Positions 865-53,251 are shown, numbered from the stretch's first letter. The stretch is 64,000 nucleotides of DNA from Sphyrna mokarran (GCA_024679065.1 JAGIQG010000009.1:99386001-99450000), one strand, 5' to 3'. The notes: a model not told the origin generated them from the letters alone. A program made the numbers and translations.

Positions 865-891
865 CATCGGTTTTGTATTTTGTGTCCTGCT
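865..891 (-). CDS. 27-nt microexon EQDTKYKTD (most 3' exon found; the gene appears to continue left of the window)
   Basis: ttgctctcactcag|AGCAGGACACAAAATACAAAACCGATG|gtaagt. Confidence 0.85.
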
Positions 892-1041
892 CTGAGTGAG
901 AGCAATAATAAAAATCATCTTAGTCATAATATGAATGGTAGTATCAAGGATCATTATGGTTTTTATCACTCCATTCACCCATTTAAAATACAGGAGGAAA
1001 GAACTGTATATTACTTTACTTGGAGAAAAAAATCTTTTTAC

Positions 1042-1068
1042 CTTTCTTGACGTCAGTGAGCTTTTTTT
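1042..1068 (-). CDS. 27-nt microexon EKKLTDVKK
   Basis: gtttcccaacag|AAAAAAAGCTCACTGACGTCAAGAAAG|gtaaaa. Confidence 0.88.
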
Positions 1069-2516
1069 CTGTTGGGAAACATCAACAATCATGTTGATAT
1101 AATGCCGGAATTTATCTGTGATTTGGTTTCATTGGCAATTCTTGATAATGTTTGCAACCACGATATACAAGAATATTACTAAAGTAATAGCGAAGCACTG
1201 CTGCGGCTGGAGGTCAGAAATAAAAAAGAGTAAGTAAAGAACGGACTGCAAGGACGCTGTGCCATTCGGTGAGAGTATGTACGATCTAATTGTGATTTCA
1301 AATTCACTTTGCTGTCCGCCAATAACATTTACCTGCCTTGTATTTGAAAAGTTATCAAAATTAGCTTGAATGAAATGAATTACCAAACGCTTTTTGGCGC
1401 AGAGAATTCGACAGGCTACTGATATTCAGAGAGAAATAATATATTTCAATCTACATTTCTGATTGTTGAATTCTGGTTTTAAACATTGTACCCTTGTTCC
1501 AGACGTGCCCACAAAATTCACATCTTCTTGCGCTGCATCTTATAAAGTCCCATCACGATATTTTATGTTTCAGTGATATCACCTTGCGTTTTTCTGAACT
1601 ACAATGCATAAAATATCTTGTACGCGAACATAAAATGTTGCTCTATACCCGTCATAACTCATAAGCGTCAACTGGAAGAGCTTACGCTATTTCATTGTTA
1701 ATATGGCAGAATTCTGCCACGCCACACTCAGTTGAATATGACATTTTGTTTGGAAAGTAAGTGATCATCTTTGAAGTTTAATCAGAACAAATCTAGATAA
1801 ACTCTTTTAGCTGCACACTTCATGCATCAACTTTTCCACTATTCTGAGGAGTCCATCTTAATTGAAATGCACGTGATCAAAAACAAATATTTTCGCTTTC
1901 ATGTCATGAGTAGGTTTTGGATTATAATTTCCGAAATTGACAAATATTACATGGTTCTGTTCCATAATGCAATGTTACCAAATTTAAATTAATATTTAAG
2001 CATATAACCGTTCGAATTAATTAAAAAGCAAAAAAGGACTCAACGAATGTTAAAAATAAGTCACATACATAACAAGCCACGTATCACATGGCTGAAGTGC
2101 CCAATCCGTAAGCCGCTCCGCCGAGACAAATCTGTGAAATGTTTTGGGAGGCAGAATTTGTCTTTTGATTTGAGATCGCCGGCAATTCTTTCTCAAGTTC
2201 CTGTTCGGACCTCCTCTTGTAGTCTGATGTTCCCAAAAAATGCGCTTTCAATCAGGAGGCCCTTAGTCCCATTCCGGCAGTTGGTTGTGGACAAAGTGCA
2301 GTTTTCTTTAAAAATTCAACTGTTTTGTATAAAGGCGATTGCCTTGGTCCCAATTCCTTTTGGAAGATAGCGCAAGTCTATTGGCCCCACCATGATTGGA
2401 TTCAATTGAAGTGAATAATATAAAACATCAGACAGAACACAGAAGGGGAAACGCCTCAGTTATCGATCTTGTTCTGCAACGCAAGATGAAATCTTGCGTT
2501 GTTGAAAAGCATTTAC

Positions 2517-2552
2517 CTGAAATTTGTAGCATTTTAGTCAATTCTGTTTTTT
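2517..2552 (-). CDS. 36-nt microexon EKTELTKMLQIS
   Basis: cattttctcattttcag|AAAAAACAGAA...ATTTCAG|gtaaat. Confidence 0.88.
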
Positions 2553-3394
2553 CTGAAAATGAGAAAATGACCGACTATTGAATAAATGACACCCTGTCAG
2601 ACCACTGAGATTAAACCAGGCTTTTGCCTTGAAGTGTATGGACTCTAAAGAACAGATGTCAAAATCTGTTATACAATTGTCATGTAATTCTTTATCATTC
2701 CATCCCAAGAGGCCGACCAAGTTAATCTACATTTCAATATAGAAATTATCATGTCCGCTCTTGAAATTTCCCATGCCCCAGGTTCTCATAAGGTGTTGAA
2801 AGGGCGGATTTTCACTGAGCGTTTTAGAATTGTAGTTCATGGTGATGTAGACACATTTCGTGAGCAAAAATATACAAGAAGAATATGTGTCGTACACATT
2901 AATTCAATGTGAATTTATATTTTCCCTCTGGATTTCAATGAAATAATTATTATTATCATTATTATTATAATGACGAACACTTAAACATTTGTTTCGATCA
3001 ACTGATGACAGTTTTACAGTTTCTGGCATCAACTGATGCCAGACTTACAGTTTCAGATATCAGCTGCAATAACACAACAAGAAGACTCGGAAGTATACAT
3101 TTTTAACGTTGTATCGAATTGTTGCACAAACGAGTGGTATCGAACCTAGCTATAGATCACAATTTTACAACAGACAGATATTCTATTCTTCATTGCTGAA
3201 TATTTACTTATGGACTTTCTATGTCGCTAGCCTTTCGTCAGAGGCTTGACGATCCACATCAAGCATGTCTGATCAGGAGACTCCCCGGCTCAATGATGGA
3301 TTTACAAATTAGTAATAAATTTGTTTGCTATATTAAGAGCATAGCTTCTGTTGTCATCATGTGCTGAGGTTTTCCTGGAGTCCAGGACATGCGA

Positions 3395-4740
3395 AAACAG
3401 GAACTAAGAGTGGGAATGCACAATTCACCCTTCGAACCCACCCCACCATTTAACATCATCATGGCCGATCTTATTCTGGTCTGCAATCCACTTTTCTGCC
3501 TTATAGCCCTTTATTCCGTTTTTCATGAGTAACATATGTATCGCTTTCTTGAATCTGCTGATTGATTCTGCCTCCACTCCCACCTGTGGTAAAAAGTCCA
3601 CAGATTCACAACGATCTAAGAGAAGTATTTGCTCCTCATCTCATTTTTGAACCTATCTTTTCTCATTCTGGGTCCAGGGCCTCTTGTCCGACACTGTCTC
3701 ACAAGGGCAGACAATTGTTCAACATCCAGCTTCTCAACACCCTTTCGTATTTGAAATATCTCAAACAGCTTTCCTTGATTCTCCTAAAATCCAGCGAGTA
3801 CTGTAAAAGAATTCGTAGCCAAAACTTGTATTAGAATGTGTGTAAAAGAACTGTAGCCGAAACTTGTATTAGAATGTTTTTCTTATTGTAAAAGAATTGT
3901 AGCTGAAACTTGTATTAGAATGTTTTTCTTGAAGTAGATTTAGGATGGGTGATGGGATAAGACTAGTATAGTTAATCAGCTCAATGTGTGTGACTTAATG
4001 TAATTAAGTATAACTGATATAATCAATGCATGCGATCCAATGAAGTTAGTACAGTAATCACTCATTAGTGAATGTAAATAGTAGCCACTCGGGAGAACAA
4101 TGGACACTGCCCAGTTGTCCAACTTGATCTGTGACAGTAGCAAACGAGAGAATAAAGTCAGCATGTTTTTTCTTTACTATTCGGCTTGAGCTAATTAAGC
4201 TATGATTAGGAGGTAAGCAGAATGGTCTAGACAAGGGAAAAGGTTTAACCACCATGGTTTCAAAAAGCAAAGAGATGTAACAATGAATGGCCAGTCTCAA
4301 GCAAGATAGATAAAGGGTCGACCCAGAAACAATGTTGGCTAAACAAGATTGAATTTTGAAAGAAAGATAAGAGTCTTGAGATATGGAGCTGTAAGATGTA
4401 TAAGAAGACTGTAAGCAGAATGGTTCAGTGGAATGTTCCGGACATCCCGGCTTTATTCTCTTGTGCTGGAGAATAAAGTCTACTGCTTGGAGGATTACAA
4501 CTCAGACTCTCTGTTTCAATCGGGTTAAATAAGTTGTCGTCTTGGGGAACCACGACAGTACAAACCAAAGCCAATCAACTACTTCGTTGATTTTCATCTC
4601 CCATGCACGTTTTCTGGCATTGCTGTGTGACTCATTGCTCTTTTTTTGGATACATCCCTTTCTCTAAAGTCCGTAATAACACGTGTCATTTGCATTTTAT
4701 GCGATGTCTTTCAATTTCACGCTAGTTGTTCTCTCAATTC
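3395..4740 (-). mobile_element. Old CR1 LINE 3' fragment interrupted by a solo LTR
   Basis: CR1 3' motifs (cccttcga, cagattcacaac, ctaaaatccagcgagtac|aaacc) resume after 4561; boundaries approximate. Confidence 0.7.
3802..4557 (+). mobile_element. Solo LTR (756 bp; ERV or Gypsy type)
   Basis: TG...CA termini, 4-bp TSD GTAC (3798-3801 and 4558-4561), AATAAA at about 4471, triplicated ~40-bp motif at the 5' end. Confidence 0.88.
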
Positions 4741-4764
4741 TGGAAATGCTCATTTTGCTATTTA

Positions 4765-5076
4765 TAGAATCTCTCCAGTACAGAAGGAGGTCATTCGACC
4801 CTTCGAGTCTTTACTAACCACAATCTCACTCAGGACTTATTTCCATAACCATATTTACCACACTAATCCACCCGACACTTTAGCATAGCCAATCTTCGCA
4901 ACCTCACCTGCACATCTTTGGTGTGTGTGAGAAAACCGGAGCATTCGGAGAAAACGTACGCAGAAACGGGGAGAATGTGCAAACTCCATACAGACCGTGA
5001 CACGAGGCTGAAATTGAACCCGAGTCTCTGGCGCTATGAGGCAGCTGTGCTAATCACTGTGCCACCGCGCTGCCCT
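4765..5076 (-). mobile_element. tRNA/V-domain SINE
   Basis: reverse complement of SINE head (cactgtgccaccgcgctgccc) and V domain (gagaatgtgcaaactcc). Confidence 0.85.
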
Positions 5077-5205
5077 CTTTCTGCTGCATTATAAATTCAT
5101 TTTTGATTAGTTTACTTTCATTCAAAACACTAAGACATTTGCGCTGTTTGATTTACTTGAATTAAGACATAGAGCATTCAGATACATTTTTTAAGGAAAT
5201 ATTAC

Positions 5206-5232
5206 CTTTGTCTTTTATTTCAATCTGCTTGT
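5206..5232 (-). CDS. 27-nt microexon DKQIEIKDK
   Basis: tttgtctctacag|ACAAGCAGATTGAAATAAAAGACAAAG|gtaata. Confidence 0.9.
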
Positions 5233-6971
5233 CTGTAGAGACAAATGTTAACTTTAAGTTGAAGGGTAAGGTTCAAAGTGGCACATTTTCTTTGCAATCT
5301 TTCAACGACAGTGGAATAAACAATGTGATCTATACTCTGTAGAAAACAATACTGCCTTTTTCAATTTTCTTTGTTATGGTCTTAAGTTTATTTCGAATTA
5401 CTGTCAACATCCTTAAGTTTAGCATCTCTAATGCGTCTAAAAATCAAATTGATGGTCGAGTTTCCTGATGAAACAGTATCCTGAATATTTACAGCGTGAA
5501 AGTTGTGCGTTTCGGAGACTAATTTTACCGATTTATTTCAATATATTTTTGTGCTTTCGCATCACTCCACACGAAAACATCAAAATTCTCGAAAAAGTCA
5601 GATAACAGGAAGCAAGAAAAAAATGTTAAAAAAAGATTTTTAACATTTTTTAACATTTTCAATCAAAGATTTCTGGGACTAATATGCCTCACACTAACTG
5701 TGCACTAAAATAATTCTCACGATAGATATTGGGGATCTTGACGTAAACAGAAATTGCTGGAAATGCAACATAAGTCAAGAAGCACCTTTACCAAAACAGG
5801 AACGGTTCATGTGCCAGTTTCTTGACCTAAATCGTTCTCCATTTTGATAGATAGGGCTTGACGTTTTGAGGATTTCTTGCATTTTCTATTCGCATCTTTA
5901 CATGACAACGTAGAAACGTGTTGATGTGGAATGTTTTGCACCACCCACACTTCTCCCCAAATTTATAGTCGGCCAAAGAAGGGATAATGGCTTATTTTCA
6001 ATTAATTTACCTAAATACTCTGACGCCATTTATATTCACTCCTTTCCATCCCCCACCATCCCCCCCCCCTCAATGTTGCATCAAGTACTGAAATTAACCA
6101 GTCTCTGGCGCTGTGAGGCAGAGTTGGACAGGACCACATGCTTTTGATGGTATCAATTATGGGCTGGATTTTTCCTGCTCTTTGCAGCGAACTGCAGTCC
6201 GGAATCAAGCGTGTTGGGCGGCGTATGATGGAGTGGAGGGCAGATAGCATGTACGACCAGTAGGAAGCAAGAGAATAAAATGCCATGGGTTTTAAGCAGC
6301 CACAGCATAGGCCCAGGAGAAGACTCCAAATAGGCAATTTTGAATGTTGACTTGGATGCCACCTTGTCATGTCCCCGGAGCCTATCAGACGCTCTTCCCC
6401 ATGTGTTCCCCCCCCTCTCGTGTAGTCATCCTCTTCTTTCTGAATATCTTATTCTCCTCCCCAGAACTCTTCTTGCTGGAGGAATAATACCCGACTTACA
6501 CAACAGTATCTTCTTCCACGACTTAGGGTAGTACTAGTGATAGCGTTAGTGAGAAACTAGAGAACTAGTGGCCGCTGATTAGCCAGCGGTTTTCTGAGGA
6601 AGGATTACTGCTGATGGGGGGAGTGGTGGGGGTGGGGGTGGGGGGGGGGTGGGGATATGCGTAAAACAAGCCTCAGGCCAAATTACTACAGACCAATGTC
6701 GCTGAGGATTTTAATTGAATCAACTGCCATTTCAGTAGATAAGAATAGTTAAATCAATATTGGACCTAGTGGACAGGACCACATGCTTGTTGTAGGATTT
6801 CATAGCACCTGGAGATACAAAGCGTTGTTAAGCGAATGAAAATCTATCATAAATGATGCATTACAATGAAAATAATCTCCATTCTTTCCATTGTCCTAGA
6901 AACTGCGTGCTTTATTTACAATAAAACATTTAGGGATCAATGCATCGTGCTAAAATTTTGAAGGCACAAAC

Positions 6972-6998
6972 CTGACATTTTTATACGATTTTCTAGTT
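6972..6998 (-). CDS. 27-nt microexon ELENRIKMS
   Basis: ttttgtttggataacag|AACTAGAAAATCGTATAAAAATGTCAG|gtttgt. Confidence 0.78.
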
Positions 6999-7239
6999 CT
7001 GTTATCCAAACAAAAAAAAACAGTTAATCTTCAATCCACGTTCTTTGTCAGTTGGATGCAATTGTATCAAAAATCTTACTGCGTATTTTTCTTTAAAGAA
7101 GTATATCTTGCATTATCACCTGGACGTCAGCCAGCATTGCAAGTAAGAGAAGATCATAAGATGTTACAAAGGGATTCTACCAGATGTTTTAAATTTGATT
7201 GTGCCAAGTTGGTTAACTTGTGGCTGCATTCGTTGACTT

Positions 7240-7654
7240 AGAACAAAGAACAAAGAACAAAACAGCACGGGAAACAGGCCCTTCGGCCCAACAAGCCCGT
7301 GATGCCACCCCGATGTTCCCACCTCTACCCGTGATCCCTGTCTATGTTTATAGATCTATGGAATAAAAATCAAATTTGAGACAATTTACGGAGAATTTGT
7401 TTTGCCAATTAGCCTAAGAGCACATCTTTGGGATGTGGGAGGAAACCGGAGCACCTGGAGAAAACCCACGCAAAGACGGGGAGAATGCGCAAACTCCCAC
7501 AGACTCAGGCCAAAATCCATGTATCTGCACAGCACAGCAATAGTCACTGAGCTGTCGTGTTGCCCATCAAATGATCCAGGTCAAGCGTACACTAACGATG
7601 TGAAGCACTAGGATACTCTTGAACAAAAAATCCAAGAGCAGCCCTCTCACGACC
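7240..7654 (-). mobile_element. V-domain SINE variant with extra 5' leader (copy 1)
   Basis: V domain (ggaaaccggagcacc), (AGAACAA)n tail, leader shared with 62031-62399. Confidence 0.85.
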
Positions 7655-7835
7655 CATTGCGTGTATGCCCCTTGTTAGACAACAAGGTGGACCAAAGCAC
7701 CTGTAAGATAAAAACAAGTATATCGACTTATTTCCTTTTCATTCAAGTGAAGCTTTTTGACTCTAGTACATTGCTTGAAATTCAACTTTTCTGTTCAAAC
7801 ACTTTTACAGAAACCCCTGACATGATGACATGATT

Positions 7836-8014
7836 TGCCTGCAGCTGTTGTAGATGCGCCAAGTTTGGTGGCGTTTAAGAGGTTAATTGATAAGTATATG
7901 GAAGAGAAGGGAATGGTTTAGTTTGGAGGGGCATTGCTTTTTATTTTGGTCGGCACAGCATCGAAGGCCGAAGGGCCTGTTCTGTGCTGTAATGTTCTAT
8001 GTTCTATGTTCTAT
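7836..8014 (+). mobile_element. Young, heavily 5'-truncated CR1 3' end
   Basis: nearly identical to 35615-35794; (GTTCTAT)n tail. Confidence 0.9.
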
Positions 8015-8337
8015 GACTTGTTTTGTGAACATATTAACAAAATCTAGAAATGCATTAATTTCAAATGAAGACTTGACATATTTTTGATGTCTCCGATGTA
8101 GATGTTTTCCAATACTGAGTCACTGGGCATAAGTGCTAGACTCAGGAATACCAGTGCTGCTTTTTGCTGATTAATTCAGTAAACTGAAGAATGCACATTT
8201 GATTTGCATTCGCCCTTCTTTTTAAATGGTCTGTGAGAAAAAAATGTAGTTCAATCTCTCAACGCCTTCCAACAACTCAAAGATAACATTCAGAAATGCA
8301 GAATCATGTATGCTATCACGACTGCTTCTCAGAAATG

Positions 8338-8730
8338 TGATTGAATTTGATTTATTATAGTCACACGTATTAGCAGACAGTAAAAAGTATTGTTTCTCGC
8401 GTGCTATGCAGATAGAGCATACCGTTCATTGAGAAGGAAAAGACAAAGTGCAGAATATAGTGTTATAGACATAGCTAGGGTGTAGAGAAAGATCAACTTA
8501 ATGCAAGATAGGTCCATTCAAAAGTTTGATGCCAGTATGAAAGAAGCTACTCTTTTGACGGTTGGTGTGTGACCTCAGACTTGTGTATCATTTTACAAGG
8601 AAAGAAGGTGGAAGGGACAATATCCGGGGAGCCTGGGGTCCTTAATTGATTTGCCGAGGCAGCGGGAAGAGCAGACAGAGTCAATGGATGGAAGGCTTGT
8701 TTGCGTGATGATTGAATACATCGTGATGCG
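8338..8730 (-). mobile_element. Rex1/Babar-type LINE 3' fragment
   Basis: homologous to 19177-19580; aataaatcaaa-type tail on the minus strand. Confidence 0.75.
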
Positions 8731-9237
8731 ATCATTGTTTCAGTGATATTAGTTTCTTATTATACCAAGTTAAGTGCCAGAGTTATATCTCACAGCATTG
8801 GCTCATTCAACTTGTCATAATTGCTGAAAGTTTGAACAATATTACCTCATCTGATTTTCATTTAATTAATCATAAATGAAAGGTTTTTCAAACGTTTTTC
8901 CTTCAAGTCATAAAATATTTCTGTGGCGTTGTAAATTGTTCTGTTTAACTGCAATGGGGTGCCGAAATAGGGTCAAATGATACATACGTGACAAAATATC
9001 ATGACTTACAATGAGAAAAGATGTATAGAATGTTGTGAAAGTAGCACGATTAAACATAAAGCTTTGTTTATTGAATCCAGTTTGCACAACTTCAGACAAC
9101 TGGTGAGGGAAAATTTTAGAAATACGCTGCACATTTCAGATGTCACTTGTTTTCCTTTCTGAGCAAATCCCTGAACAGGTAGTGCAATTCTTTGAAAGTG
9201 TTGACTTCTATATCAAAGAGACCTTTCTTATGCTTAC

Positions 9238-9264
9238 CTATCTGTTTTTCAAACATATGATTTT
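9238..9264 (-). CDS. 27-nt microexon ENHMFEKQI
   Basis: ctacgccctcacag|AAAATCATATGTTTGAAAAACAGATAG|gtaagc. Confidence 0.85.
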   Translation of the reverse strand, partial: KIICLKNR

Positions 9265-9573
9265 CTGTGAGGGCGTAGTACATACTTTCAGTACAAAATC
9301 AAGTAGAAATGCAATGCTATCTTTTCAGGTAAATCCAGGAGATAAAATTTTTTCATGTCCCGCTCCACTTAATCAGATTTCTGGAATTATTCTTGATCCG
9401 AAATTTTATAGCATTAGGTCTTGCTATCTTGCTCACAAAAGCACAGAATACCGGAAAACAATCAGGAGCAGGAGAATCGACAGTTACATCCAATTCAACG
9501 TCATTGTCATTATCCTTCTGGTAACAATTGTCCATATGCTATGAAGGACTGTTGCACCAGTTTGACAGTAAGA

Positions 9574-9738
9574 AGTCTCACAACATCAGGCTAAAGTCCA
9601 GCAGGTTTATTTGTAGCAAACATCATTAGCTCTCGGAATTTGCTGTTCCTTTGACAGGTGGAGGAATAGCCAGTTCCAAAAGCTCGTAGCGTTTGCTACA
9701 AATGAACCTGTTGAATTTTAACCCAGTGTTGTGAGACT
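9574..9738. mobile_element. Penelope-like palindromic remnant
   Basis: inverted arms agtctcacaaca...caggtttatttgtagcaaac / gtttgctacaaatgaacctg...tgttgtgagact; family assignment from recall of similar shark repeats. Confidence 0.65.
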
Positions 9739-11001: not shown

Positions 11002-11298
11002 GGGACGGTACAGTGGCACAGTCATTAGCACTGCTGCCCCATAATGATACGAACCTTGGGTTCGATTTACAGCTTTGGCCATTTTCTGTGTGGGGTTTGC
11101 ACGTTCTCCCCATGTCTGCGTGAGTTTCCTCCGGGTGTTTCCTTCCACAGTCCAAAAGATGTACTGGTTAGGTGGATTGGCAATGTTAAATTCTCCCTCG
11201 GTGTACCGGAACAGGCGCCAGAATGTGGCAACTAGGGGATGATCACAATAACTTAATTGCAGTGTTAATGCGAACCTGCTTGTGAAAATAAATAAATT
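11002..11298 (+). mobile_element. tRNA/V-domain SINE
   Basis: gtggcacagtcattagcactgctgcc head, gggttcgattt B box, V domain, aataaataaa tail; same subfamily as 22795-23040. Confidence 0.85.
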
Positions 11299-43021: not shown

Positions 43022-43057
43022 CTGATAATTGCATAATATCTTTCAGGTTTTCGATGT
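43022..43057 (-). CDS. 36-nt microexon DIENLKDIMQLS
   Basis: ttttctttttcag|ACATCGAAAAC...TTATCAG|gtataa. Confidence 0.88.
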
Positions 43058-44465
43058 CTGAAAAAGAAAATCGGGTGAAACTTACCTAGCTTTGATTTCA
43101 TGTTTAATCACTTGATAGGAAAAAACATACATTTGATAGTATCCTTGTCCAACCGATGTTGTATATGTCTTACAAATTGAGCTTTTTTTAATCACCAAGC
43201 AGAATATGAGGCAAGGGGAGTAGTGAATAAACTGACAATAGATGCTGTCAGAACAAAGAGTCATGGACGGAATATTCTGGCCTTTCAAGCCTGAGGAACC
43301 TGGGTGTCATCATTCCCACCACGAGTTTCATTGTGGAGTGTGACGCATTCAAAGGGAAACCCCGTTTACAACGGTGAGGCCAGTAGGTGCCGCTGCGAAC
43401 ATGCGGAGTGTTTGGTGAAAATGGTAGAATGGTTGAGGGGAATATACGGCTTCTTCTGTCACATTTGGCATTGTGAAGGATCAATTCACATTGTCATTGT
43501 TCCAACCGTCCGTCACTCTGCAACTTCTTGTTTTTCGGAGCTACTTCCCCCTGAATGCCTCTATCGAATTATCTTCACTATACTCTCAGTACAGTGCATC
43601 GTCATCGCGCCGTTTATTCTTTGGCTACTCATGTGAAATCAAATAGATTTTAAAAAATCATGGAATAAATTAAGTAACACCTGTGCTTAACAACGTGCTG
43701 ACATTAGTCTATTTGCAGTTCTTGCAGGATAACTCACTTTAAAGGCTGCAGTAAGAAGTAAACATAATGCAGATATAAACAACCCGGAGTTGAAATTGAA
43801 AACCTCTTTTTTTGAAGAATTAACATTTCATTGGTGAAATATATGCTGGAAAATTAAATACAAAGGAATAAAGATTATAGTTGCACTTGAAATCTGCATG
43901 GACATGATTAGTAAGTCTGTTCTGTTTTATTTTATTGATGTACTATCGCATTTAAATATTGTCTAAGTGCAATTTCTGCCGTGTGAAGCTTGATAGCATG
44001 CAACCTGTTCTGACATTAGAATAGGATTAGCGTTGGTCGCCTTTTCTCGTTCCAGGCAAACATTTTTTTTAAAAATGTTCATGAATTACAAACAAATGAT
44101 GCAAAAGTATATTATAGTCTAAATAATCTTACTCATACAACGATGCTGATATTACTGTATGGGGTTGTTGGGGGGGGGGGATGGCGACAAACGGATGTTC
44201 GGCTAGTTATTATTATCTTCATACCCTATAACTTTCTCCTAGCCTTCAACTCTTCATCTTGTGTCCAAATATGAAGGCAAAAACGAATAGCTTGTTAGAA
44301 TATATGCTCTCCATCAATGGATTAACTAATCTTGCATAGAGATATAACCACACATTATATTTATAGAAAAAATACTTTTGGATCTTATTAATGTTTAACA
44401 TGTTGTAAATGCACCAACTTGTAATATAAACAGAACCGCATGTTTCTTTGTATGTTTTCTTTTAC

Positions 44466-44501
44466 CTGAGAGTTTTATAAGTTTATTAAGATGTTCAATT
44501 T
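44466..44501 (-). CDS. 36-nt microexon EIEHLNKLIKLS
   Basis: attatttttgtcag|AAATTGAACAT...CTCTCAG|gtaaaa. Confidence 0.88.
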
Positions 44502-45034
44502 CTGACAAAAATAATGGAAATAAAGAATAAAAGCGATGAATAAAAATAGAAAAAAAAAACTTAAAAAAAGGTAGTTATAGTAGCATCTGCGGAGAGAGAA
44601 ACAGAGTTAGCATTTGGACTTCATATGACTACTTCAGGGTTTTAGAGAAGGATAAATGTAATACATTATATACCAGAAAAGAAGGATGGAGAAGCTGAGC
44701 AACGTAGAACCTCAGAAATAAGTGGTACAAGGTGACATTGCAACAAGAACACGAGTCACAGGTAGTATTAAGTGTTACAAAGTTTACTCACAATACTAAT
44801 TAATGTAATATTTAACTTTTATAAAAAAAATCAGGTTTTGAAATTGCCCCATTAACCAGAGTGAGACACATTAATGCATGACACGATTATTTTCCAGATT
44901 AAGGGTTCACATTGAGACTTGCACGGCATAGCTCGCTTTGAGGATGGAACGAAAATATAGTTTACTTGAAATACATGCATGAGGACTCGATTACGACCTA
45001 AGATGTGCATTGAAGATAGCCAGACAAAATGGAA

Positions 45035-46375
45035 ATCAAGTTTTTTCAAGGAAGTGACGAAGATGACTGATGAGATAGGAAAGAGCGTGTTGTCTACATG
45101 GACTTCAGTAAAGCTTTTGATAAGACTGGTGCATAAGGTGACGTCGCATGGAATTAGTGCTGAGCTGGCCAGATTGGTACTGAACTGGCTTGATCATAGA
45201 AGGCAGAGGTCAGCAGTGGAACTGTGTGTTTCTGAATGGAGGGCTGTAACAAGTGGCGTTCCTCAGGGATCAGTGATGGAATCTTTGCTGTTTGTTTTTT
45301 ATATATATATAATATGAATAATTTGGAGGAAAATGTAACTGGCTTGATTAGCAAGTTTGGCCACAACACAAAGGCTGGTGGGTTCACGGATATCAATGAG
45401 GACAATCAGAGGATATAGCAGGATATGGATCGATTGGAGATTTGGGCGGACAGATTGCGGATGGAATTTAATCCAAACCAATGTGACGTAATGCATTTTA
45501 GAAGACCTAATACAGATATGAAATATTCATTAAAGGGCAGAACCCTTAAGAGTATTGATAAGCAGAAGGATATGGGTGTACAGGTGCACAGGTAACGCAG
45601 GTGAAGAAAGTAGTCAAGAAGGCATAAGGCATACTTGCCTTCATTGGCTGGAGCATTGAGTTAAAAAATTGGCAGATCATGTTGCAGCTTTATTGAACCT
45701 TAGTTTGGTTGCACTTGGATTATAGTATTCAATTCTGGTCACCACACTACCAGAAGGATGGGGAGCCTTTGGAGAGGGTACAGAAAAGTTTTACCAGGGT
45801 GTTGGCTGGTATGGAGGGTATTAGCTATAGGAGAGGTTGGGGAAAATTAGTTTGTTCTCACTGGGATAACGGAAATTGAGGGCCACCTGGTAGAAGGCTA
45901 CAAGATTATGAGGGGCATGGACATAATGGATAATCAATGGATAATTAAAAGCTTTTCCTCGGGGCGTAAGTTAATTACTAGGGAGCATACGTTTAAGGTG
46001 CGAGGGACAAGGTTTAGAGGAGATGTATGCAGCAAGTTTTTTTTTGCATAGACGAATTTTCAAACATCATTTTTCCTTGCTTTCATTACGCCGCGTTTAT
46101 GCAAATGACAATACAGCTGGACTATTGAGTATTACATTTCATTACGTCAAACAAGTGTGACATAAATATTTCGAAGTGTGTGCCTGGAACTTGCTGCCGT
46201 GGGAAGCAGTGGACTAGATACGTTAGTGACTTTTAATGCGCATCTTGACAAATGCATAAATAGGAATGGAATGGAGGGGCATTGTCCCTGGAAGATAGGT
46301 AGTTTTAGTTCGGCGCATGATTGGTGTGGGCTTGGAGGGTAGAATGGCTTATTCCTGTACAGTACTTTTTTTCTT
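45035..46375 (+). mobile_element. CR1 3' portion (RT C-terminus), degenerate
   Basis: GVPQGSV, SKFGHNTK, ttctggtcaccacactac; interrupted at 46054-46176. Confidence 0.9.
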
Positions 46376-46711
46376 CGTTGAAATAAGAAAGGCTATTCGT
46401 GTACACTTGGCTGACATATTGTTGAATTTGAGCCTTGATCGTCGAGGTGCATTCTATGTCACGTAGGCATAAATATAATAATTTCCACTGACAGTACTTT
46501 TCACCATTATTTCACGAGTAATCACACTTAATCTGAGGCTAGGCTGGATATTAGGTGCATCATTGTTAATAAAAAAAACCTCTGGTTCTTCGAAATATTT
46601 ATGCCATATTTGTTCAACGTAACGAAATGTAACACTCAATAGTCTAGCTGTAGTTGCCATTTGCATAAACACTGCGTGATGGAAGCAAGGAAAAATGATG
46701 TTTGAAAATTC
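46054..46711. repeat. ~123-bp inverted repeat (46054-46176 / 46588-46711), ~411-bp spacer
   Basis: gaattttcaaacatcatttttccttgc...ataaatatttcgaag is the reverse complement of cttcgaaatatttatg...ggaaaaatgatgtttgaaaattc, with scattered mismatches. Confidence 0.93.
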
Positions 46712-47328
46712 TTCCCAAAGTCACAGATGAGGGAATAGGGCTGCACTTCTAATGAAGAATGACAATGTAGGAATAACTTGCAATTTCACTTGAAGTCAGT
46801 AAATCAGATGTCATTCAGGCCTGCGATATCCTAATACGTTAAATACGATTTATCTGGACTGTATTTGCCTCATAAACGAATCAATTTCGGGTTTGAAAAA
46901 GAGTGAAAGTTGCCAAACATACTTTGCGATTGAGTCTCGAGTGGCGTTGATAATCTCAGTTCCCAGAACATTAGGAAGTCGAAATTTCTGTTTTATTTTA
47001 CAGATTCACTCTACGGTTCACAATATAGAGCGACAGTAATGTTACTGCCTGGTATTGACGCCATTTTGAGCCAGAATATTGCATAAATTACGCGAGGCAC
47101 AGTCAGTGCAATGCTCATAAGCATGCATAACTTTTTTTTAAAAACAATAATTGTTCTGTTAATGTGTGCAACTATATTCAGATATGGCTTTATAAAAGAA
47201 TATGAAAATAACATGGCTAAAATGAGTGCGCGGATTTAGATCACATGAACCCGTTTTAATACTGGCATTGGGGAAACATTTCAGGATATTTAAATTGTAA
47301 AATAAAATAAAGGTCTGCTGAGACTTAC

Positions 47329-47355
47329 CTTTCTCTTGCTCGATGATTCTTTTTT
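47329..47355 (-). CDS. 27-nt microexon EKRIIEQEK
   Basis: ttttctgtcttag|AAAAAAGAATCATCGAGCAAGAGAAAG|gtaagt. Confidence 0.92.
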
Positions 47356-48119
47356 CTAAGACAGAAAAAAATTCCTTACATTTTAAGCAAGCAGGAAATA
47401 TATTTCCTTCTCACAATAAATCAAAATAAACTATTTTTCTGAAGTGCAAAATCTTAAACAATGTTCAGCCAGGTTAAAGCTTTTCTCTTCATGTATTAAT
47501 GGGATGTAGGCACCAGGGACTGTGCTATCAGTTATTCAGCAATCCTGACTGGACTTGAGCTCCGTGATTCAGAGGGGATACAAGGGTCAGCAACATTGCT
47601 TTGGATTTGTAATCACATGCAAGCCAGACTAGGTAAGCGTCGCAAAGTTCCTTGCCAAAGAGGCATTAGCGAAGCATATGCACTCACTAACGCCCTCAAT
47701 TAATGTCTTTTCGAAAAATGACATCGATATCTGCGCATTATGGTAAAGCAGATTGTCGAATTTCAATCCGAGTCATGCAAAAGAACAATATGATTAGTAA
47801 AAAGATGAGTTATATTCGGTACCAAACGTTAATTATTTCCCGTTTTCTTATAAATTTGTTCAGCACTTTGAGTTTCGTTAGAAATATGGAAGTTTGTGAT
47901 ATAAATGCAATACGTTTTATGTATTTTGTTAGCGTTCTGTCTCGTCTTGTCGGGAAATCATTCCACCATATTGACTGCACTCCAAAGCCTGCAAGGATTT
48001 TCTAGAATGTTTCTATAAGGTGGAACAGAGATTACTGATCTGGTTGCGTGAGGAGTGCAATGGGAAGGAAAGGCCTCTGGTGGGGTTTGGAGTTCCTGCA
48101 GCTCCATCGTAAATTGTAT

Positions 48120-48216
48120 TTCCATCTTTCCTTCCATCCTTCCTTCCTTCGTTCCTTCTTTCCATCCTTCCTTCCTTCCTCCCAACTTCAGTTCTTCCTT
48201 TCATCCTTCCTTCATT
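48120..48216. repeat. Imperfect (CCTT)n microsatellite
   Basis: ccttccatccttccttccttcgttcctt... Confidence 0.9.
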
Positions 48217-48508
48217 CAATCTTTTAGATTCTGTTCGAACTAAAATGTGCCCTTCGATCTCTCTGTAAGTCCATCCATTCTCTATCCCACCATTCTTCCA
48301 CCCATAATCTTTCCAGCAACCGACTTGTCTAATAATCTATTTACTGATGTGACAATTGAACCTGTTCTCGAGAGGAAAATGAGCAAAACGGGCAAAATAA
48401 TGGCTCCCACAATCAGACTTTTCATTACAGTTTGTATAAATGACTACCAATATTCATTTCAAATGCATAACTAATTTGAAGTGCATTAAAAAAAGATGCT
48501 ACTGGCAC

Positions 48509-48544
48509 CTGCTTTCTTCAGGTGGTCTTTCAGTCTTCGAATCT
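48509..48544 (-). CDS. 36-nt microexon EIRRLKDHLKKA
   Basis: ttattttgttcgtag|AGATTCGAAGA...AAAGCAG|gtgcca; fits the EIxxLxxxL motif. Confidence 0.88.
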
Positions 48545-50805
48545 CTACGAACAAAATAAACAGTTTTTCATAAAATGAATCGCTGCAATTTTATTATTTC
48601 AGCCTTAGCATGTCACAGAAATATTATTAGTTTGAGGAAAGTTGCACCTCTTTTTTTCTGCACTGCATGATTTAGAAAAGCGAGAATATTCGCACTTCTG
48701 CAGTTCAAAAGTTTCCATACGCATTGCTGAACTTGCAGATATTGTAACTTTACTCTCAGTAAGTATTTACCACAAGCAAGTTTTATTTTCATTTAAGCAA
48801 GCTGCCTTTGTCGGAATAGTATATCTGTATTTGCAAATTTTCACGAAAATGGCTGACGTCAGACCAGCACAACGTCAGATTCATTTATTAGGAAAAAATG
48901 AATGAACACGGCAATATATGTCATTATTAAAAAGGTACGGATTTGGAATTTCTCTTTCAGAGTCATAGCTCTTAAATACCTAGCTATTGAAAGAGAACAC
49001 ACATCATTAAGACAAAACATTAGTCTGAATAAAGTAAGAGAAAACGCCTTCCACATTACACATTGAAATCAAATAATCGTGAGAGTGTCCAGGACAGATT
49101 GAGGGTGCAATAAGTTCTAAGGCATTATTAGTGGATGCAGCATTTTAAAAGTCATTTCGGTAATGTAACAAGCAGGATGCAGTAAATGGGCGCAATCAAG
49201 TAAATACACTTTCATTTCCAAAGAACGCTGTGTGTGGTGCCACTTTAAACGTTACTGCAAAAAAATACGACCTTCTGATATTTGAAGTGATACATGGCTA
49301 TAAGCAGAAGGTTGGAAAATAATCTTTTCAGTTTTGCAAGTTGTGATTACTGGACAGAAATAAAAATCAATGGTGAACCTCTGCTATGTGCATACTATGC
49401 TATTCAATTAGACAAAAATGTTAGCTGTATTGCAGCAAAATTTGCTGACGAATCTAAGTCAGTGAGAAATGGAATTACATATGTACAATATATATGCATA
49501 CACACGCACATTTACATAGATAATAGATCAAAACGTGACACATTCTAACATAAAACAAAGAACAAACATGAATTACATACAATAGGAATGCAGAATGTGA
49601 TGGATCCGAGTGGCCGTGTATTTAACTCACAAAAACCTAACATTTGGGTACAGCAAGTAAATAGAAAGGAAATTGTATGTTCGTGTTTATTGTAATGAAG
49701 ATTGAGAATAGAATAGATATGTGCACTTCTTCATATATGAAGGCGATAGGGGCCAATCACTTTGCACAGAGGCTTGTTTCTTTTTGTAAAATTGTTTCTC
49801 AGAGATCAGTAGAAACCTACTCATTGGATAGCGTCAAAGATCAGTCATCGGTATTTTGAAACACACAGGAGTCAATGATCATAGAAGGCAGGAAAGAATG
49901 TGGGCTAAATGACACCATCAGATTCAAAATCATCTTATTGAATGGATGCGCAACTTAATGAACAGCCTCTGCTCTATTTGTTATGATTTTACACAAGAGT
50001 CAATCAAACATCTAAAGGAGACGACTTTGAAAACAGATTATATAATGGAAGCAACTATAAGTTCAGAAAATGAAAATTATTAAGCAAGAAACGACTTTGT
50101 GATTGTTATTGTACTTAATGGAACTCATTGTTTTGAGATTTCACAAGTGAAGGCCGAAATGTCAATTAATTTTAGCGACGTTAAAAAATCGTAATAAACA
50201 TTGGGAAAATGTGGAAAGAGTCACATTACGTTTGGTCCATATATTACCTTTGTAATTGTATGAAGGAGATTGCGATATAATGCTTTGCAATTAAATAAAA
50301 TGTGATTTCCAGAAGTAGTTGAAATAAATACATAATTGCAAGATGTGTAGCCAAATAGATAAATCCATAAATATGGCACACATAATCTGAGTTGCTAATG
50401 AGGGGAAAATGATTTCTTTTCCCGTGTTATTGCCAAAGTAGATGGCACTGGGCATAGGAAGGACTATTTGATGAAGAGGATGACATTTCCATAATTAACT
50501 AGCTCATTTAATCTAAACAGAAGGAATTTCAAGGAGGTACTCAGGGTGGGGTGTTGTGTCGACCAAACCATATGACGTTTATTAATCTTTCCCGATGAAT
50601 GCCATTGAATCACGTCGGACACACAACATATCAACTGACCATAGTTCCCAATTTATCCATGTGAACTCCGACGCTGCACTCACATCTTTTCCCATATTTC
50701 CTTATCTAATTCTATGATACTGAATTTCCATTCCTTGTTCTATCACAAATATTTCTATCTTCCCTTTGAAGACATTCGAGCTATTCGCTTCAAATACTCC
50801 CTCAT

Positions 50806-51131
50806 GTTACGAATAGTATGTAACTTGAAATTCAATTTATATTTATACTTACGTGCTAACACAATTGAAACATGTTTCTAGTTCCAATTAGAAATGTTTG
50901 TGTTCTTGCATTTGTTTAGAAATCTTTGCAACATTTTTGTGCTTTGCAATGTGTTATTTTTCTTATTTAATAATTATTTTATTGTTTGTGTTAAAGGTAC
51001 GCTAACATAAGGAAATCACTGTACTGAGCAAATTAAAGCCGCGCATTACAGAATAGCAAAGTTAGCATTTACCAAGCGAGTGTTATTCTGGGCTCAGACT
51101 GTTCAGTACTAACACCAGGTGGGATCGTAAA
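50806..51131. mobile_element. Probable short solo LTR
   Basis: begins tgttacga and ends gggatcgtaaa (near-inverted termini); internal attaaa; no clear TSD. Confidence 0.45.
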
Positions 51132-51199
51132 CCCGCATAAGCACATCGACTACAACAGCAGGTGAAAGGCTAGGAAAACTGAGCGAGTAAACAAATTCC

Positions 51200-51665
51200 T
51201 AACACCCCAAAGCCGGTTCACCATCTACAAGGCACAAGTCAGGAGTGAATTGGAATGCTCCCCAGTTGCCCGAATCGTTCAACTCTAGCAACACCGAGGA
51301 AATTTGAGGACAAAGCAGCCTGCTTCATTGGAACCACATCTTCGCTGTCTATCATCAATGCTCAGTAGCAGCTGAGCGTATTATCTGCAAAATGCACCTT
51401 AACAGTTCACCAACAGATACACGGGAACACCACTGTCTCTTAGCCACTTAGAATTCTAACCAGTAAATATATTGTCATTCGTTTACAGTCGCTGGGTCAA
51501 CATTCTCAACGTTCTCCCTAATGTCACCGTGGTCAACCAACAGCACGTGGACTGTAGCGTTTCAAGATTGCAGCTCATTTTCACCTTCTCAAGGGCAACT
51601 CGAGAGGAGCATTAAATGCTGGCCAGCCAGAGACGCCTATGTTCCCTGACTGAATTTAAAAAAAG
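51200..51665 (+). mobile_element. 3' end of CR1/L2-group LINE (same family as 11690-15112)
   Basis: accatctacaaggcacaagtcaggagt (TIYKAQVRS), caccttctcaagggcaact, aaatgctggcc tail. Confidence 0.75.
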
Positions 51666-51714
51666 TCTATAGTCCTAACATGCTATATGTTCAGACTTAT
51701 GGCTGAAAAATTCC

Positions 51715-52790
51715 AAGGCCGGGAATCTCCCATTCGCTGCGCTAATGATTTTAGCGAGCAGGGAAAATCAGGCGTCGACCAATTTGCGAGGTTACGGTGA
51801 GTATTCGCGCAGAAAAGCAACGAGAAAGCAGGGTCAGCATTCAAATAGCATTTCGCATGTTATTTAAGTAATATTAAATACTAGCATCTCCCACTCTGCA
51901 AGGATATTTCATTCCAACTGATTTACACTAGCTTCCCGCTGACCGGGAACAGGAGGAAGTGAAGGGGGAGGGGAGGGGGAACTACCTGGCCCTCCACGGA
52001 GTCTGGGCCCAGGGAATGGTATGCCCTGGGCATGAATACCCTAGCAGTGCCATGCTTTACACACTAGCACAGCCGAACGGGTAAAATGGCCAGCGGATGG
52101 GCACCAAGTATGGATCAGTGCCAAGGAGACATTGCCAATTATAGGAAGGGTTTAGGGAGCGATGTCTATGCGGCGAAAAGTGTGGGTGGGGGTTCCCGCT
52201 GCCACTCTGCAGTCTGGATAGGTCAGTGATCAGATCGGACTGATCGGGGCAGGGGGGCGGTGATATCCGCCTACTGGGGGTCAGAATTTCGGGGAATGGG
52301 GAGTCTGGACTGTGGGAAAATGGGTTGGTCTGCAGGTGGGTCGGTTAAATGTCGCAAGTGAATTGGGGAAGGTGGTTGGAGAGAAGGAGGCAGGCCATTA
52401 ATGGCGAGCCAATGATCAGATTGTGGTGGGAGGCGGGCGGGGTGCAGGACGGCAGAGATGGCTGCATTGCGGAGGTCGAGGAGTTGGCCAGAAATGATCA
52501 GGTCAGCAAAAAGGGAGATTGTCAGTGCGGGAAGAGTACGCAAGTGCCATTCTCGGCACTGAAAGATCGGCGCGTGCGGAGTGGTCCGATCAGCACTCTG
52601 ATTTCAGTATCTTGAGCAACAATAGGCCCCGTCTTCTGAAATCCAATGATGTTCGCGCTAGTGGCCTCTGCAGTGCACAGAGAGTGGGAGATTCTTGTCT
52701 GAAATCTTATTGATGAAACCACCGTGAATTACTCCAGCTTTGAATTCGACGTTAGAAGTTACTGGGAGTCACTTCTGATAATTATCGCCT
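51715..52790. mobile_element. GC/G-rich interspersed element, probably a non-autonomous DNA transposon
   Basis: abrupt GC-rich island in AT-rich DNA; ends aatctccca...cgctaat vs gcgctag...tgggagatt partly inverted; family not determined. Confidence 0.45.
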
Positions 52791-52930
52791 CAAGCCTTGC
52801 TTGTCAGAGAACAAAATTAGTAATGAATGGCAGGGGTGCTACACAAATCAAACCACATTGACTAGTTTTTATACTCCGAGTATAAAACTTTATATTTCAA
52901 AAATAAAGCATTTTCTGAATAAGCATTTAC

Positions 52931-52957
52931 CTTTGTCTTTTAAAATGAGAGCTTTGT
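52931..52957 (-). CDS. 27-nt microexon DKALILKDK
   Basis: ttttttgacag|ACAAAGCTCTCATTTTAAAAGACAAAG|gtaaat; paralogous to exon 5206-5232. Confidence 0.9.
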
Positions 52958-53215
52958 CTGTCAAAAAAAAGAATAAGGCAGTTTGTACAGTACATCAAAG
53001 AACATAGCATTTTGTGTTCACAACTATATTTTGATGCAAATGTGACGAATAAACCGAATGAGTCAAATAATTGGCCGGTGCCGTTTCTTTATGCTAAACT
53101 GTATAGTTGATCAGATAAACTAAGTACCTAAATTGATTTTGCGAGCATGTGGAATTTCTTATATTGCATTCTTCTTTCATACATTAAAAAGAAGAATACT
53201 TTATTTCTTTTTCAC

Positions 53216-53251
53216 CTTTCTCAAAGAGCATTGATTCAAGCGTGTTCATTT
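53216..53251 (-). CDS. Coiled-coil microexon gene, 36-nt exon, (E)MNTLESMLFEK (most 5' exon found)
   Basis: tctttgttttcag|AAATGAACACG...GAGAAAG|gtgaaa; phase 1-1, no stop, hydrophobic at positions 2/5/9. Confidence 0.85.

Follow-up and report, generated by a model that had tools for sequence, protein, structure and literature searches.

The window, a stretch of 64,000 nucleotides of Sphyrna mokarran DNA, lies wholly inside a gene on the minus strand (1..64000), whose exon array begins and finishes beyond it. This is probably, if only by a modest measure, one large cartilaginous-fish gene coding for a soluble tether made of a coiled coil and a B30.2 domain, which resembles the tail of butyrophilins and BG proteins and belongs to neither family. 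The gene model (Table 1) comprises a Met-bearing short head exon 20 kb above the window, 123 phase-1 microexons, all symmetric, and a terminal B30.2/SPRY exon 283 kb below, spanning ~367 kb in total; exons 5–26 of the model fall in the window. An earlier note on this DNA had proposed a hidden coiled-coil gene of at least 21 microexons with a 36+27-nt unit. Both the gene and its unit were borne out (in 23 of 29 instances the exon after a 36-nt one is 27 nt long), but the size of the array had been understated, as it contains about 123 exons. These code for a rod of about 1170 aa and include 68 exons of 27 nt, 29 of 36 nt and 5 of 21 nt; the count of 123 follows the manual removal of twelve rows of the chain or scan output that were considered spurious or overlapped, and seven of the 123 have a splice score as their sole support.

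Table 1. Exons of the gene model, listed from the 5' end within each part (positions outside the window are the contig coordinate minus 99,386,000).
Feature	Position	Strand	Source
Head exon with ATG	84323-84454	-	gene model
Four microexons	73429-75383	-	gene model
Microexon, 36 nt	53216..53251	-	scan + catshark protein mapping
Microexon, 27 nt	52931..52957	-	scan + catshark protein mapping
Microexon, 36 nt	48509..48544	-	scan + catshark protein mapping
Microexon, 27 nt	47329..47355	-	scan + catshark protein mapping
Microexon, 36 nt	44466..44501	-	scan + catshark protein mapping
Microexon, 36 nt	43022..43057	-	scan + catshark protein mapping
Microexon, 36 nt, without clear paralog partner	38309..38344	-	scan + catshark protein mapping
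Microexon, 27 nt	32138..32164	-	scan + catshark protein mapping
Microexon, 36 nt	26595..26630	-	scan + catshark protein mapping
Microexon, 27 nt	26345..26371	-	scan + catshark protein mapping
Microexon, 42 nt, proline-containing linker	24861..24902	-	scan + catshark protein mapping
Microexon, 27 nt, overlooked earlier	23709..23735	-	scan, paralog, catshark proteins
Microexon, 24 nt	20958..20981	-	scan + catshark protein mapping
Microexon, 27 nt	20233..20259	-	scan + catshark protein mapping
Microexon, 27 nt	17554..17580	-	scan + catshark protein mapping
Microexon, 24 nt	15909..15932	-	scan + catshark protein mapping
Microexon, 27 nt	9238..9264	-	scan + catshark protein mapping
Microexon, 27 nt	6972..6998	-	scan + catshark protein mapping
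Microexon, 27 nt	5206..5232	-	scan + catshark protein mapping
Microexon, 36 nt	2517..2552	-	scan + catshark protein mapping
Microexon, 27 nt	1042..1068	-	scan + catshark protein mapping
Microexon, 27 nt	865..891	-	scan + catshark protein mapping
97 further microexons	-2756 to -276806	-	gene model
Terminal B30.2 exon with early TGA	-282164 to -282691	-	gene model

De novo scans recovered all 21 segments listed earlier, on the minus strand within 865..53251. Together they amount to 639 nt (seven segments of 36 nt, eleven of 27, two of 24 and one of 42) and are stop-free and of phase 1-1 throughout, with YAG acceptors carrying 10–16 pyrimidines per 19 positions and GT donors, which are weak in two exons (48509 and 6972). 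The joined peptide, however, skipped a 22nd exon of 27 nt (23709-23735, between 24861-24902 and 20958-20981); this exon is matched in paralog B and in both catshark proteins, and the junction proposed there was thus wrong by one exon. Five additional candidates in the window (58534-58572, 55938-55955, 38094-38108, 32478-32492 and 13643-13666) had no catshark or paralog partner and were dropped. Long ORFs of the window, one of which is a reverse-transcriptase fragment, do not explain the array, and an Rfam scan of the window gave 0 matches.

Short AG..GT segments are abundant in the window (1495 raw candidates on the minus and 1724 on the plus strand), and splice-like motifs might arise by chance in intronic DNA. 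A fixed rule (YAG/A..G/GT; 24, 27, 36 or 42 nt; charged; stop-free), which was defined after the exons had been seen, gave 20 minus-strand hits versus 4 on the plus strand and 2.2 ± 1.4 (maximum 6) in 100 dinucleotide shuffles, so both controls suggested in the earlier note yielded far fewer hits than the minus strand. The held-out scan is a cleaner test than this post hoc rule: when a model was trained on the 21 exons and applied to the 283 kb that lie below the window, it found 81 hits on the minus strand and 3 on the plus strand. The strand bias and the held-out test, together with the colinear paralog, the catshark proteins and the dN/dS values given below, refute an origin by chance, whose probability we consider negligible.

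Predicted catshark proteins match the array exon by exon. In P0174, a predicted protein of S. canicula, 20 of 21 window junctions were adjacent and in the same order, with 144 of 200 aa identical, and P0007 of S. torazame had an exon-chain score of 1612, the two controls, plus strand and reversed protein, scoring 140 and 298, respectively. Joined through their overlaps, P0174, P0007 and P0001 give a chain of 1492 aa, composed of pieces from both species, that extends from the head Met to the B30.2 domain. The database models found were fragments (430, 579, 589, 730 and 945 aa), and none of them spans head to B30.2. RefSeq pieces of the family, orthologous or paralogous, include XP_038671249.1, XP_072329362.1, XP_072329363.1, Narcine XP_0697754xx and P0174, and such fragments carry automatic names (A33-like, CENP-E-like, golgin-like, trichohyalin-like or uncharacterized). 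Orthologues of the gene, which the earlier note could not assign to a named one, do exist as fragmentary, automatically named RefSeq models, none of those found being full length. A genome-wide translated search with the catshark orthologue found the gene by its head exon only, and an ESM Atlas search returned only generic coiled-coil clusters. As the array is split between the models P0174 and P0001 in S. canicula and between P0007 and P0005 in S. torazame, it might represent two or more genes or transcripts. Yet the break points differ between these species and the pieces overlap, truncated models finish in non-coil, intron-like tails (by eye), and the exon chain of Sphyrna mokarran runs unbroken from a single head exon to a single terminal exon. 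Such a division is improbable, and we infer that a single transcript would run from head to B30.2 in Sphyrna mokarran.

The rod has a hydrophobic period of 3.5 (power 58.9 versus at most 29.5 in 100 residue shuffles), the heptad pattern expected of the coiled coil proposed earlier. The heptad score of the real exon order was 53.4, compared with a maximum of 21.8 in 300 exon-order shuffles, and 23 of the 29 36-nt exons begin at heptad position g. A single-sequence structure model of P0001 (S. canicula) consisted entirely of long helices, at low confidence (pLDDT 55). It had also been suggested that any subset of exons could be skipped to tune rod length. Every skip is indeed in frame. However, an exon corresponds to whole heptads in only 6 cases out of 123, and since the exon order preserves heptad register, free combinatorial skipping is unlikely. 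The possibility that such skipping is the main function, generating rods of varying length or surface, agrees with the symmetry of every exon and with predicted isoforms: models of the ray Narcine omit 8, 8, 11, 12 and 23 aa, with occasional skips of single exons, and single 9-aa omissions occur in predicted models of catshark, Narcine and chimaera paralogs. However, besides the scarcity of whole-heptad exons, the loss of one 27-nt exon creates on average 0.46 additional register breaks, whereas the loss of a 36+27 pair removes 0.18 (a single 36-nt exon costs only 0.04), and in Narcine 5 of 8 models depart from the longest one by a single internal gap rather than by free combinations. We thus consider isoform diversification quite unlikely as the main role.

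The gene belongs to a tandem cluster of at least three related genes, which occupies 99.1-101.5 Mb of the contig. Tandem paralog B (116700-461456, window-relative) retains 72 of 73 matched microexons intact, and between the window gene (copy A) and copy B the dN/dS ratio over 72 intact exon pairs was 0.42 (bootstrap 0.32-0.54), or 0.33 for the window exons alone, values biased downward because the exons had been pre-selected as stop-free and similar. The neighborhood is a B30.2/TRIM-rich zone beside MHC class I genes; all 53 MHC-I matches lie on the same contig as the gene, the nearest 3.3 Mb away. A search for MHC class II beta was uninformative, as it gave no match anywhere, including the controls.

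The terminal exon matched the SPRY Pfam model at 32.5 bits (cut-off 26.3), with no match to the PRY model at E 0.1. Its closest relative of solved structure by sequence was the B30.2 domain of BTN3A3 (E 1.8e-9), and the structure model of an orthologue's domain folds as a B30.2 (TM about 0.8 to B30.2 structures), with TRIM7 B30.2 as the top Foldseek match. In the B30.2 tree, which was midpoint-rooted, with weak deeper nodes and only five Ig-bearing rows, the cartilaginous-fish domains formed their own clade (support 1.0), and the shark protein did not group with the sampled Ig-bearing proteins; the branch length was 0.54 for copy A versus 0.22 for catshark. Copy A contains a TGA 21 codons ahead of the natural B30.2 stop, which would delete the last two strands of the fold and leave the domain incomplete. 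Copy B has a TGA at the same codon and a frameshifted, decayed B30.2, and no B30.2 match was found in the DNA searched for copy C. As the rod of copy B is under selection despite its ruined B30.2, this domain may not be essential and is possibly dispensable. The rod alone might then be functional while B30.2 is being lost in this lineage, the product being a structural protein that consists of the coil alone, comparable to the BG-derived zipper protein, or the gene a recent pseudogene; copy A also lacks one exon that is present in copy B and catshark, and another was cut from 36 to 27 nt. Against this, a full B30.2 is kept in catshark, basking shark and copy D, and the 20 residues past the copy A stop are as conserved (14/20 identical to catshark and 16/20 to basking shark) as the domain body (90/151 and 78/151, respectively), which suggests a recent change, an allele or read-through. 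A rod that works without B30.2 therefore appears rather unlikely.

No Ig, RING, B-box or TM exon was found alongside the coil and B30.2 in the DNA searched. Between the head and the next gene, none of 97 minus-strand ORFs of at least 50 aa (97/97) matched an Ig, RING, B-box or Pyrin family in Pfam, and tblastn for these domains gave no match there; two weak tblastn matches occurred elsewhere (E 0.011 on the plus strand, and E 0.038). Motif searches of the DNA upstream of the head likewise gave no Ig, RING, B-box or Pyrin exon, and no hydrophobic exon common to copies A and B was found there. In six shark and ray family proteins the maximum 19-residue hydropathy was 0.59-1.34, with no TM- or signal-like stretch. 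The flanks contained a terminal B30.2 exon, one of the features whose presence the earlier note had raised, but no signal peptide, Ig or TM exon was found in the DNA searched. A membrane receptor of butyrophilin/BG type, with signal, Ig-V and TM exons far upstream or shared by the cluster, would fit the MHC linkage, the nearness of the B30.2 domain to BTN3A among solved structures, and the head exon, which is itself phase 1-1 and open 5' of the ATG in all three copies, so that a distant upstream coding exon is possible. However, no Ig or TM exon lies between the head and the next gene, the catshark model begins at the head Met, no V-set was found in the scanned shark and ray family members, and the B30.2 tree does not group the protein with the sampled Ig-bearing proteins. 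We regard a membrane receptor as very improbable.

Under the preferred reading of a soluble tether, the transcript would open with a short acidic head exon, continue through about 120-130 symmetric phase-1 microexons whose order is largely fixed, and close with the B30.2 exon; the predicted product, of about 1400-1500 aa, would be soluble and cytosolic. The long coiled coil formed by its rod is predicted to be left-handed, to extend over about 175-190 nm and to be interrupted by a few short hinges. Judging from the heptad pattern only, two chains would most likely pair in parallel, which would place paired B30.2 domains at one end. We infer the dimer geometry, the cytosolic location and a tether role: the protein may serve as tether or spacer much as the tail of a butyrophilin or chicken BG protein does in the cytoplasm, minus the membrane part, with B30.2 binding a partner and the rod setting the reach or lying along a filament. 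Changes in the length of the array probably came about as groups of exons, above all the 36+27-nt pair of three heptads, were duplicated or deleted. A broader proposal, which we hold doubtful, is that an old, unrecognized family of B30.2 proteins, tail-only and linked to the MHC, exists in cartilaginous fishes, with >100 microexons setting the reach and the copies changing rod length by whole exon groups and repeatedly shedding B30.2. The history of chicken BG would then have been repeated independently with another exon unit, and 36+27-nt pairs, skipped in a regulated manner, would serve as a molecular ruler for an immune or cytoskeletal tether roughly 180 nm long. The gene adds an undescribed branch to the butyrophilin/BG/TRIM neighborhood of the oldest jawed-vertebrate MHC, and it exposes a blind spot of annotation, in that a 367-kb cluster member is present in databases only as misnamed pieces.

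Several known systems resemble the shark gene in part. Schistosome micro-exon genes (MEG) likewise have symmetric microexons, which are skipped combinatorially in their transcripts; in the family of the shark gene, predicted isoforms show single skips, and the register constraint speaks against free skipping. Guinea-pig enterophilins combine a long leucine zipper with B30.2 and are not known to contain a RING; they share with the shark protein a soluble long coil and B30.2 without known RING or Ig, but are several-fold shorter. Enterophilin-1 has been linked to SNX1 (PMC13749957). B30.2-type TRIM proteins share the coiled coil, the B30.2 and the genomic neighborhood, and RefSeq names of relatives are A33-like, TRIM39-like or TRIM58, but no RING or B-box was found in the shark gene, whose rod is far longer and microexon-coded. 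Teleost proteins with a long coil and PRY-SPRY (carp si:ch211-14a17.10, Triplophysa "myosin-4" and a Hemibagrus model) have the same domain order at 725-2602 aa, with no RING or Ig in the 12 scanned of 45 hits, but their B30.2 forms a separate clade and several begin with signal-peptide-like stretches (by eye). A testis role was considered since a teleost look-alike is listed among testis-specific Arapaima transcripts (bioRxiv 10.1101/2020.09.29.317222); the same look-alike, however, turns up in a proteome table of zebrafish embryos (PMC9995408) and in a list for microglia (PMC9653411), and it lies outside the shark clade, so that a testis role is a lead only. Two other text matches to "ch211-14a17" (PMC10961373, PMC7092794) concern, in the matching passages, a different gene.

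The analogy with butyrophilins and BG genes drawn at first holds for the terminal B30.2 exon and the MHC linkage, but no Ig or TM exon was found. Butyrophilins (BTN3A1/3A3, BTN2A1, BTNL) are MHC-linked, have heptad exons followed by a terminal B30.2 exon, and provide the best sequence match of solved structure. They are described (PMC8813856) as having just a few heptads in addition to Ig-V, Ig-C2 and TM, whereas Ig-V, Ig-C2 and TM were found in none of the shark DNA searched, and Ig-V + Ig-C2 in neither the DNA from head to next gene nor the database fragments. In chicken BG, according to three papers (PMC4046983, PMC5938342, PMC8813856), the long coiled-coil tail derives from a series of tiny exons, 13-36 of 21 nt with one heptad each, which are of phase 1 and have their first codon split, together with Ig-V and TM and without B30.2; the genes lie in tandem on one strand, adjoining a TRIM region in the vicinity of the MHC, and a BG-derived intestinal zipper protein is a soluble tail-only form described as regulating actin-myosin. 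The shark gene resembles these accounts of chicken BG in its long coil from tiny phase-1 exons that split the first codon, in its same-strand tandem array near MHC and TRIM region and, as predicted, in a soluble tail-only product, but differs in its terminal B30.2, in having no Ig or TM found, and in its about 123 exons, mostly of 27 or 36 nt (only 5 of 123 have the 21-nt length of the BG unit), which make it an extreme case for splicing fidelity. It can now be tested whether long microexon-coded tails were ancestral to BG genes or had two origins.

De novo scans of the window recovered all 21 minus-strand segments (639 nt in total) that an earlier note had proposed as microexons of a hidden gene, and the phase 1-1, stop-free frame and YAG..GT borders claimed for them held in every case. 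The list was one short, as the exon at 23709-23735 had been overlooked. A fixed rule, composed once the exons were already known, gave 20 minus-strand and 4 plus-strand matches in the window, versus 2.2 ± 1.4 (maximum 6) in 100 shuffles. When a model trained on the 21 exons only was applied to 283 kb of held-out sequence below the window, the plus strand, named as the control, gave 3 matches versus 81 on the minus strand. This bias leaves a negligible probability that the segments are chance splice-like motifs. Across the 914 kb examined (genome total, 2.77 Gb), the same model gave 194 minus-strand (108 + 69 + 17) versus 11 plus-strand matches. The hidden gene is real.

The gene containing the window (copy A) extends past both ends. 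In window numbering carried past its ends (contig position minus 99,386,000), the array continued downstream as far as -276,806, and 5.4 kb further a SPRY-scoring frame of 174 codons was found (32.5 bits versus a cut-off of 26.3), whose best solved relative was BTN3A3 (E 1.8e-9). Upstream lay four additional microexons and a 132-nt Met-bearing head exon, 84% identical to that of a tandem paralog, copy B. The model comprised 123 microexons (3519 nt) spanning 367 kb, counted after twelve doubtful rows had been removed by hand and a lower bound because some catshark segments matched no exon. Catshark protein or paralog supported 116 exons, and score alone 7. Exon lengths were 27 nt (68), 36 nt (29), 24 nt (14) and others (12); donors were GT (120) or GC (3), and the median intron was 2.0 kb. 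Copies A and B also share a conserved block that ends at a common splice donor and is likely a 5' untranslated exon and promoter region.

The copy A B30.2 frame, used as query, returned a 945-aa Scyliorhinus canicula protein (XP_038671249.1), through which further models were reached: one of 430 aa from S. canicula, others from Narcine, and XP_072329362.1 and XP_072329363.1 from S. torazame. These catshark and Narcine matches are computed protein models; NCBI pipeline models of such kind rest on RNA-seq. The head Met is the first residue of the 430-aa protein, in which each of the 22 window exons is represented in the same order, with exactly one junction residue at 20 of 21 junctions and identity at 144 of 200 residues. 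The 730-aa S. torazame protein had a chain score of 1612, compared with 140 for the plus strand and 298 for the reversed protein. Pieces from different species overlapped into 1492 aa from head through B30.2, which makes it improbable that the array represents several separate genes.

The rod encoded by the microexons was 1173 aa long (K+R 22.5%, D+E 22%, P+G 2.3%), with E or D as junction residue in 90 of 123 cases. The suggested coiled coil was borne out by a hydrophobic period peak of 3.5 (power 58.9 versus ≤29.5 in 100 shuffles); at a coiled-coil rise of 0.1485 nm per residue, the rod would be ~175 nm long. For the catshark protein, AlphaFold run on the single sequence predicted long helices joined by short linkers, with low confidence (pLDDT 55). 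The proposed 36+27 unit was also evident: a 27-nt exon directly followed 23 of 29 36-nt exons, and such a pair encodes 21 residues, or three heptads. By a simple heptad model devised for this analysis, the real exon order scored 53.4 with 21 register breaks, compared with a mean of -6.5 (maximum 21.8) and 35 breaks (minimum 26) for 300 shuffled orders; removal of an exon added on average 0.46 breaks for 27-nt exons, 0.04 for 36-nt exons and -0.18 for 36+27 pairs. Exon order thus matters and skipping is not free. Of the idea that any subset could be skipped, only part survives: some exon skipping likely occurs, as predicted isoforms suggest, whereas freely skippable subsets conflict with the register constraint. 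Compared with the longest Narcine model, 5 of 8 lacked internal stretches (8, 8, 11, 12 and 23 aa) without loss of frame, and 9-aa drops were present in three paralog sets. Such drops would suit a combinatorial isoform diversifier, which we consider unlikely given the constrained order and the fact that only 6 of 123 exons are whole heptads.

The copy A B30.2 exon contains a TGA (next base C) 21 codons ahead of the natural stop, and copy B has the same TGA within a frameshifted exon. Catshark and basking shark have Arg at this codon, and a basking-shark domain model (pLDDT 88.9, B30.2 fold) places two predicted strands beyond it. The last 39 exons are absent from copy B, for which no true 3' end was found. 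Within its range it matched 73 of 84 copy A exons, of which 72 were intact; dS was 0.58, dN 0.25 and dN/dS 0.42 (0.32-0.54; window exons, 0.33), a ratio biased downward because of exon selection, which does not affect the catshark match. The TGA, together with the frameshifted B30.2 and intact microexons of copy B, would fit a coil-only protein or a recent pseudogene. This appears rather doubtful, since the copy A tail after the stop is undecayed (identity 14/20 with catshark and 16/20 with basking shark; domain body, 90/151 and 78/151, respectively). Judged from these alignments, an old truncation is the less likely reading, and the TGA may instead be an allele, a site of read-through, or a recent or parallel (CpG-type) change. 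Copy B also has, 1.6 kb apart, a pair of 24-nt exon candidates with the same sequence, a probable recent exon duplication.

Further members lie on the same contig. A third head exon (copy C) and the microexons below it may form one gene of ~590 kb; no B30.2 for this array was found in the part of the region examined. Copy D has 9 microexon matches within 50 kb (L082-L085), and its B30.2 groups with a catshark "TRIM39-like" model, itself without RING. All 53 MHC class I matches of the genome were on this contig (85.8-95.8 Mb), as were ~110 of the 150 SPRY matches listed (counted by eye; region 81-113 Mb). A V-set cluster was also present. Located 190 kb below the gene was an intact PRY-SPRY exon of the conventional kind; the 20 kb examined near it gave no microexon matches on the minus strand.

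Locations of features (L numbers, stretches of contig C1548 in local coordinates; P numbers, database proteins)
Feature	Location	Remark
Copy A head exon	84,323-84,454 (window numbering)	
Copy A TGA	L059:7372-7374	
Conserved block, copies A/B	L013:2220-2500	
Copy B	contig 99.50-99.85 Mb (L016-L040, L068-L080, L021-L027)	72 or more microexons intact, under selection
Identical 24-nt candidates, copy B	L038:4975-4998, L038:3351-3374	
Third head exon (copy C)	contig 100.48 Mb, L091:5200-5460	microexons below: 100.47, 100.25, 99.89-100.0 Mb (L093, L086-L090, L061-L065)
Fourth array (copy D)	contig 101.42 Mb, 2.0 Mb above window	intact B30.2, L081:3329-3778
Conventional PRY-SPRY exon	L094:2563-2889	
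V-set cluster	contig 81.1-81.8 Mb	
LINE-type fragment	window 34608-35596 (+)	intronic; RVT_1 confirmed
LINE-type fragments	window 27992-28450 (-), 44852-45317, 62445-62810 (-)	intronic; identified by eye
46-bp tandem repeat	window 3802-3930	two copies
TTCC microsatellite	window 48120-48217	
Giant coil + PRY-SPRY proteins	P0045, P0050, P0055, P0065, P0075, P0085-P0088, P0095, P0100, P0118	

The flanking scan proposed earlier yielded the B30.2 exon but no Ig or transmembrane parts. From the head to the end of copy B, no Ig, RING, B-box or Pyrin exons were found by motif scans, tblastn (12 N-terminal pieces of BTN, TRIM and Pyrin proteins) or Pfam (97/97 minus-strand frames of ≥50 aa), which returned just repeat fragments and one sub-threshold match. 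Hydropathy revealed no transmembrane-strength stretch in six family proteins examined. These results make a membrane butyrophilin very unlikely, although the head exon is symmetric and its frame open ahead of the ATG in three copies, which qualifies the no-membrane result. The best explanation, in our view somewhat favored, is a soluble B30.2-bearing rod acting as a tether and encoded by one gene. The product would be a soluble, rod-shaped molecule, probably of two parallel chains, with B30.2 at one end, resembling the inner half of a butyrophilin/BG molecule, greatly lengthened and released from the membrane. It could hold a ligand of B30.2 some way off, as a tether, or run along a filament, by analogy with a BG-derived zipper protein described as acting on actin-myosin (PMC4046983, PMC5938342).

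A tree was built from 45 hand-chosen B30.2 domains (FastTree, 181 columns, rooted at the midpoint). Copies A and D grouped in it, at support 1.0, with sequences from catsharks, basking shark, bamboo sharks, an electric ray and a chimaera, and with three unnamed proteins. Provided that the chimaera protein, placed here by its B30.2 sequence, truly belongs, the family extends across the cartilaginous fishes. Among 45 matches scanned out of 150 listed, 12 had a long coil and PRY-SPRY without RING or Ig; these formed a clade separate from copies A and D, and the three named ones were all bony fish. Members of that clade reach 2602 aa, and several have signal-peptide-like starts and misleading names. 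Four other proteins (P0015, P0017, P0018 and P0022) carry 3 to 8 PRY-SPRY domains in tandem after a Pyrin domain.

Enterophilins combine a long leucine zipper with B30.2, and triadin and TSBP1 are microexon arrays that serve as comparison systems. No description of a shark microexon rod-B30.2 family was found in titles and abstract openings of the open-access literature; shark MHC gene tables in supplements, outside this scope, could list these models. On those titles and openings, the copy A family would be a previously undescribed variant of the BG/butyrophilin-type tail. Schistosome micro-exon genes (PMC5825161) offer another comparison. According to three papers (PMC4046983, PMC5938342, PMC8813856), BG genes carry Ig-V, TM and 13-36 exons, each of 21 nt; butyrophilins combine Ig-V, Ig-C2, TM and B30.2 with a few heptads; and TRIMs require RING and B-box. 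Unlike BG genes, copy A has B30.2 and mostly 27/36-nt exons, and no Ig-V or TM was found; it shares B30.2 with butyrophilins and B30.2-type TRIMs, whereas Ig and TM parts of the former and RING and B-box of the latter were not found. Because a defining feature of each is missing, the gene lies outside all three. The BG/butyrophilin analogy first drawn for this array therefore holds for the tail and not for family membership: the copy A gene belongs to none of these families and, by analogy, functionally resembles their tail.
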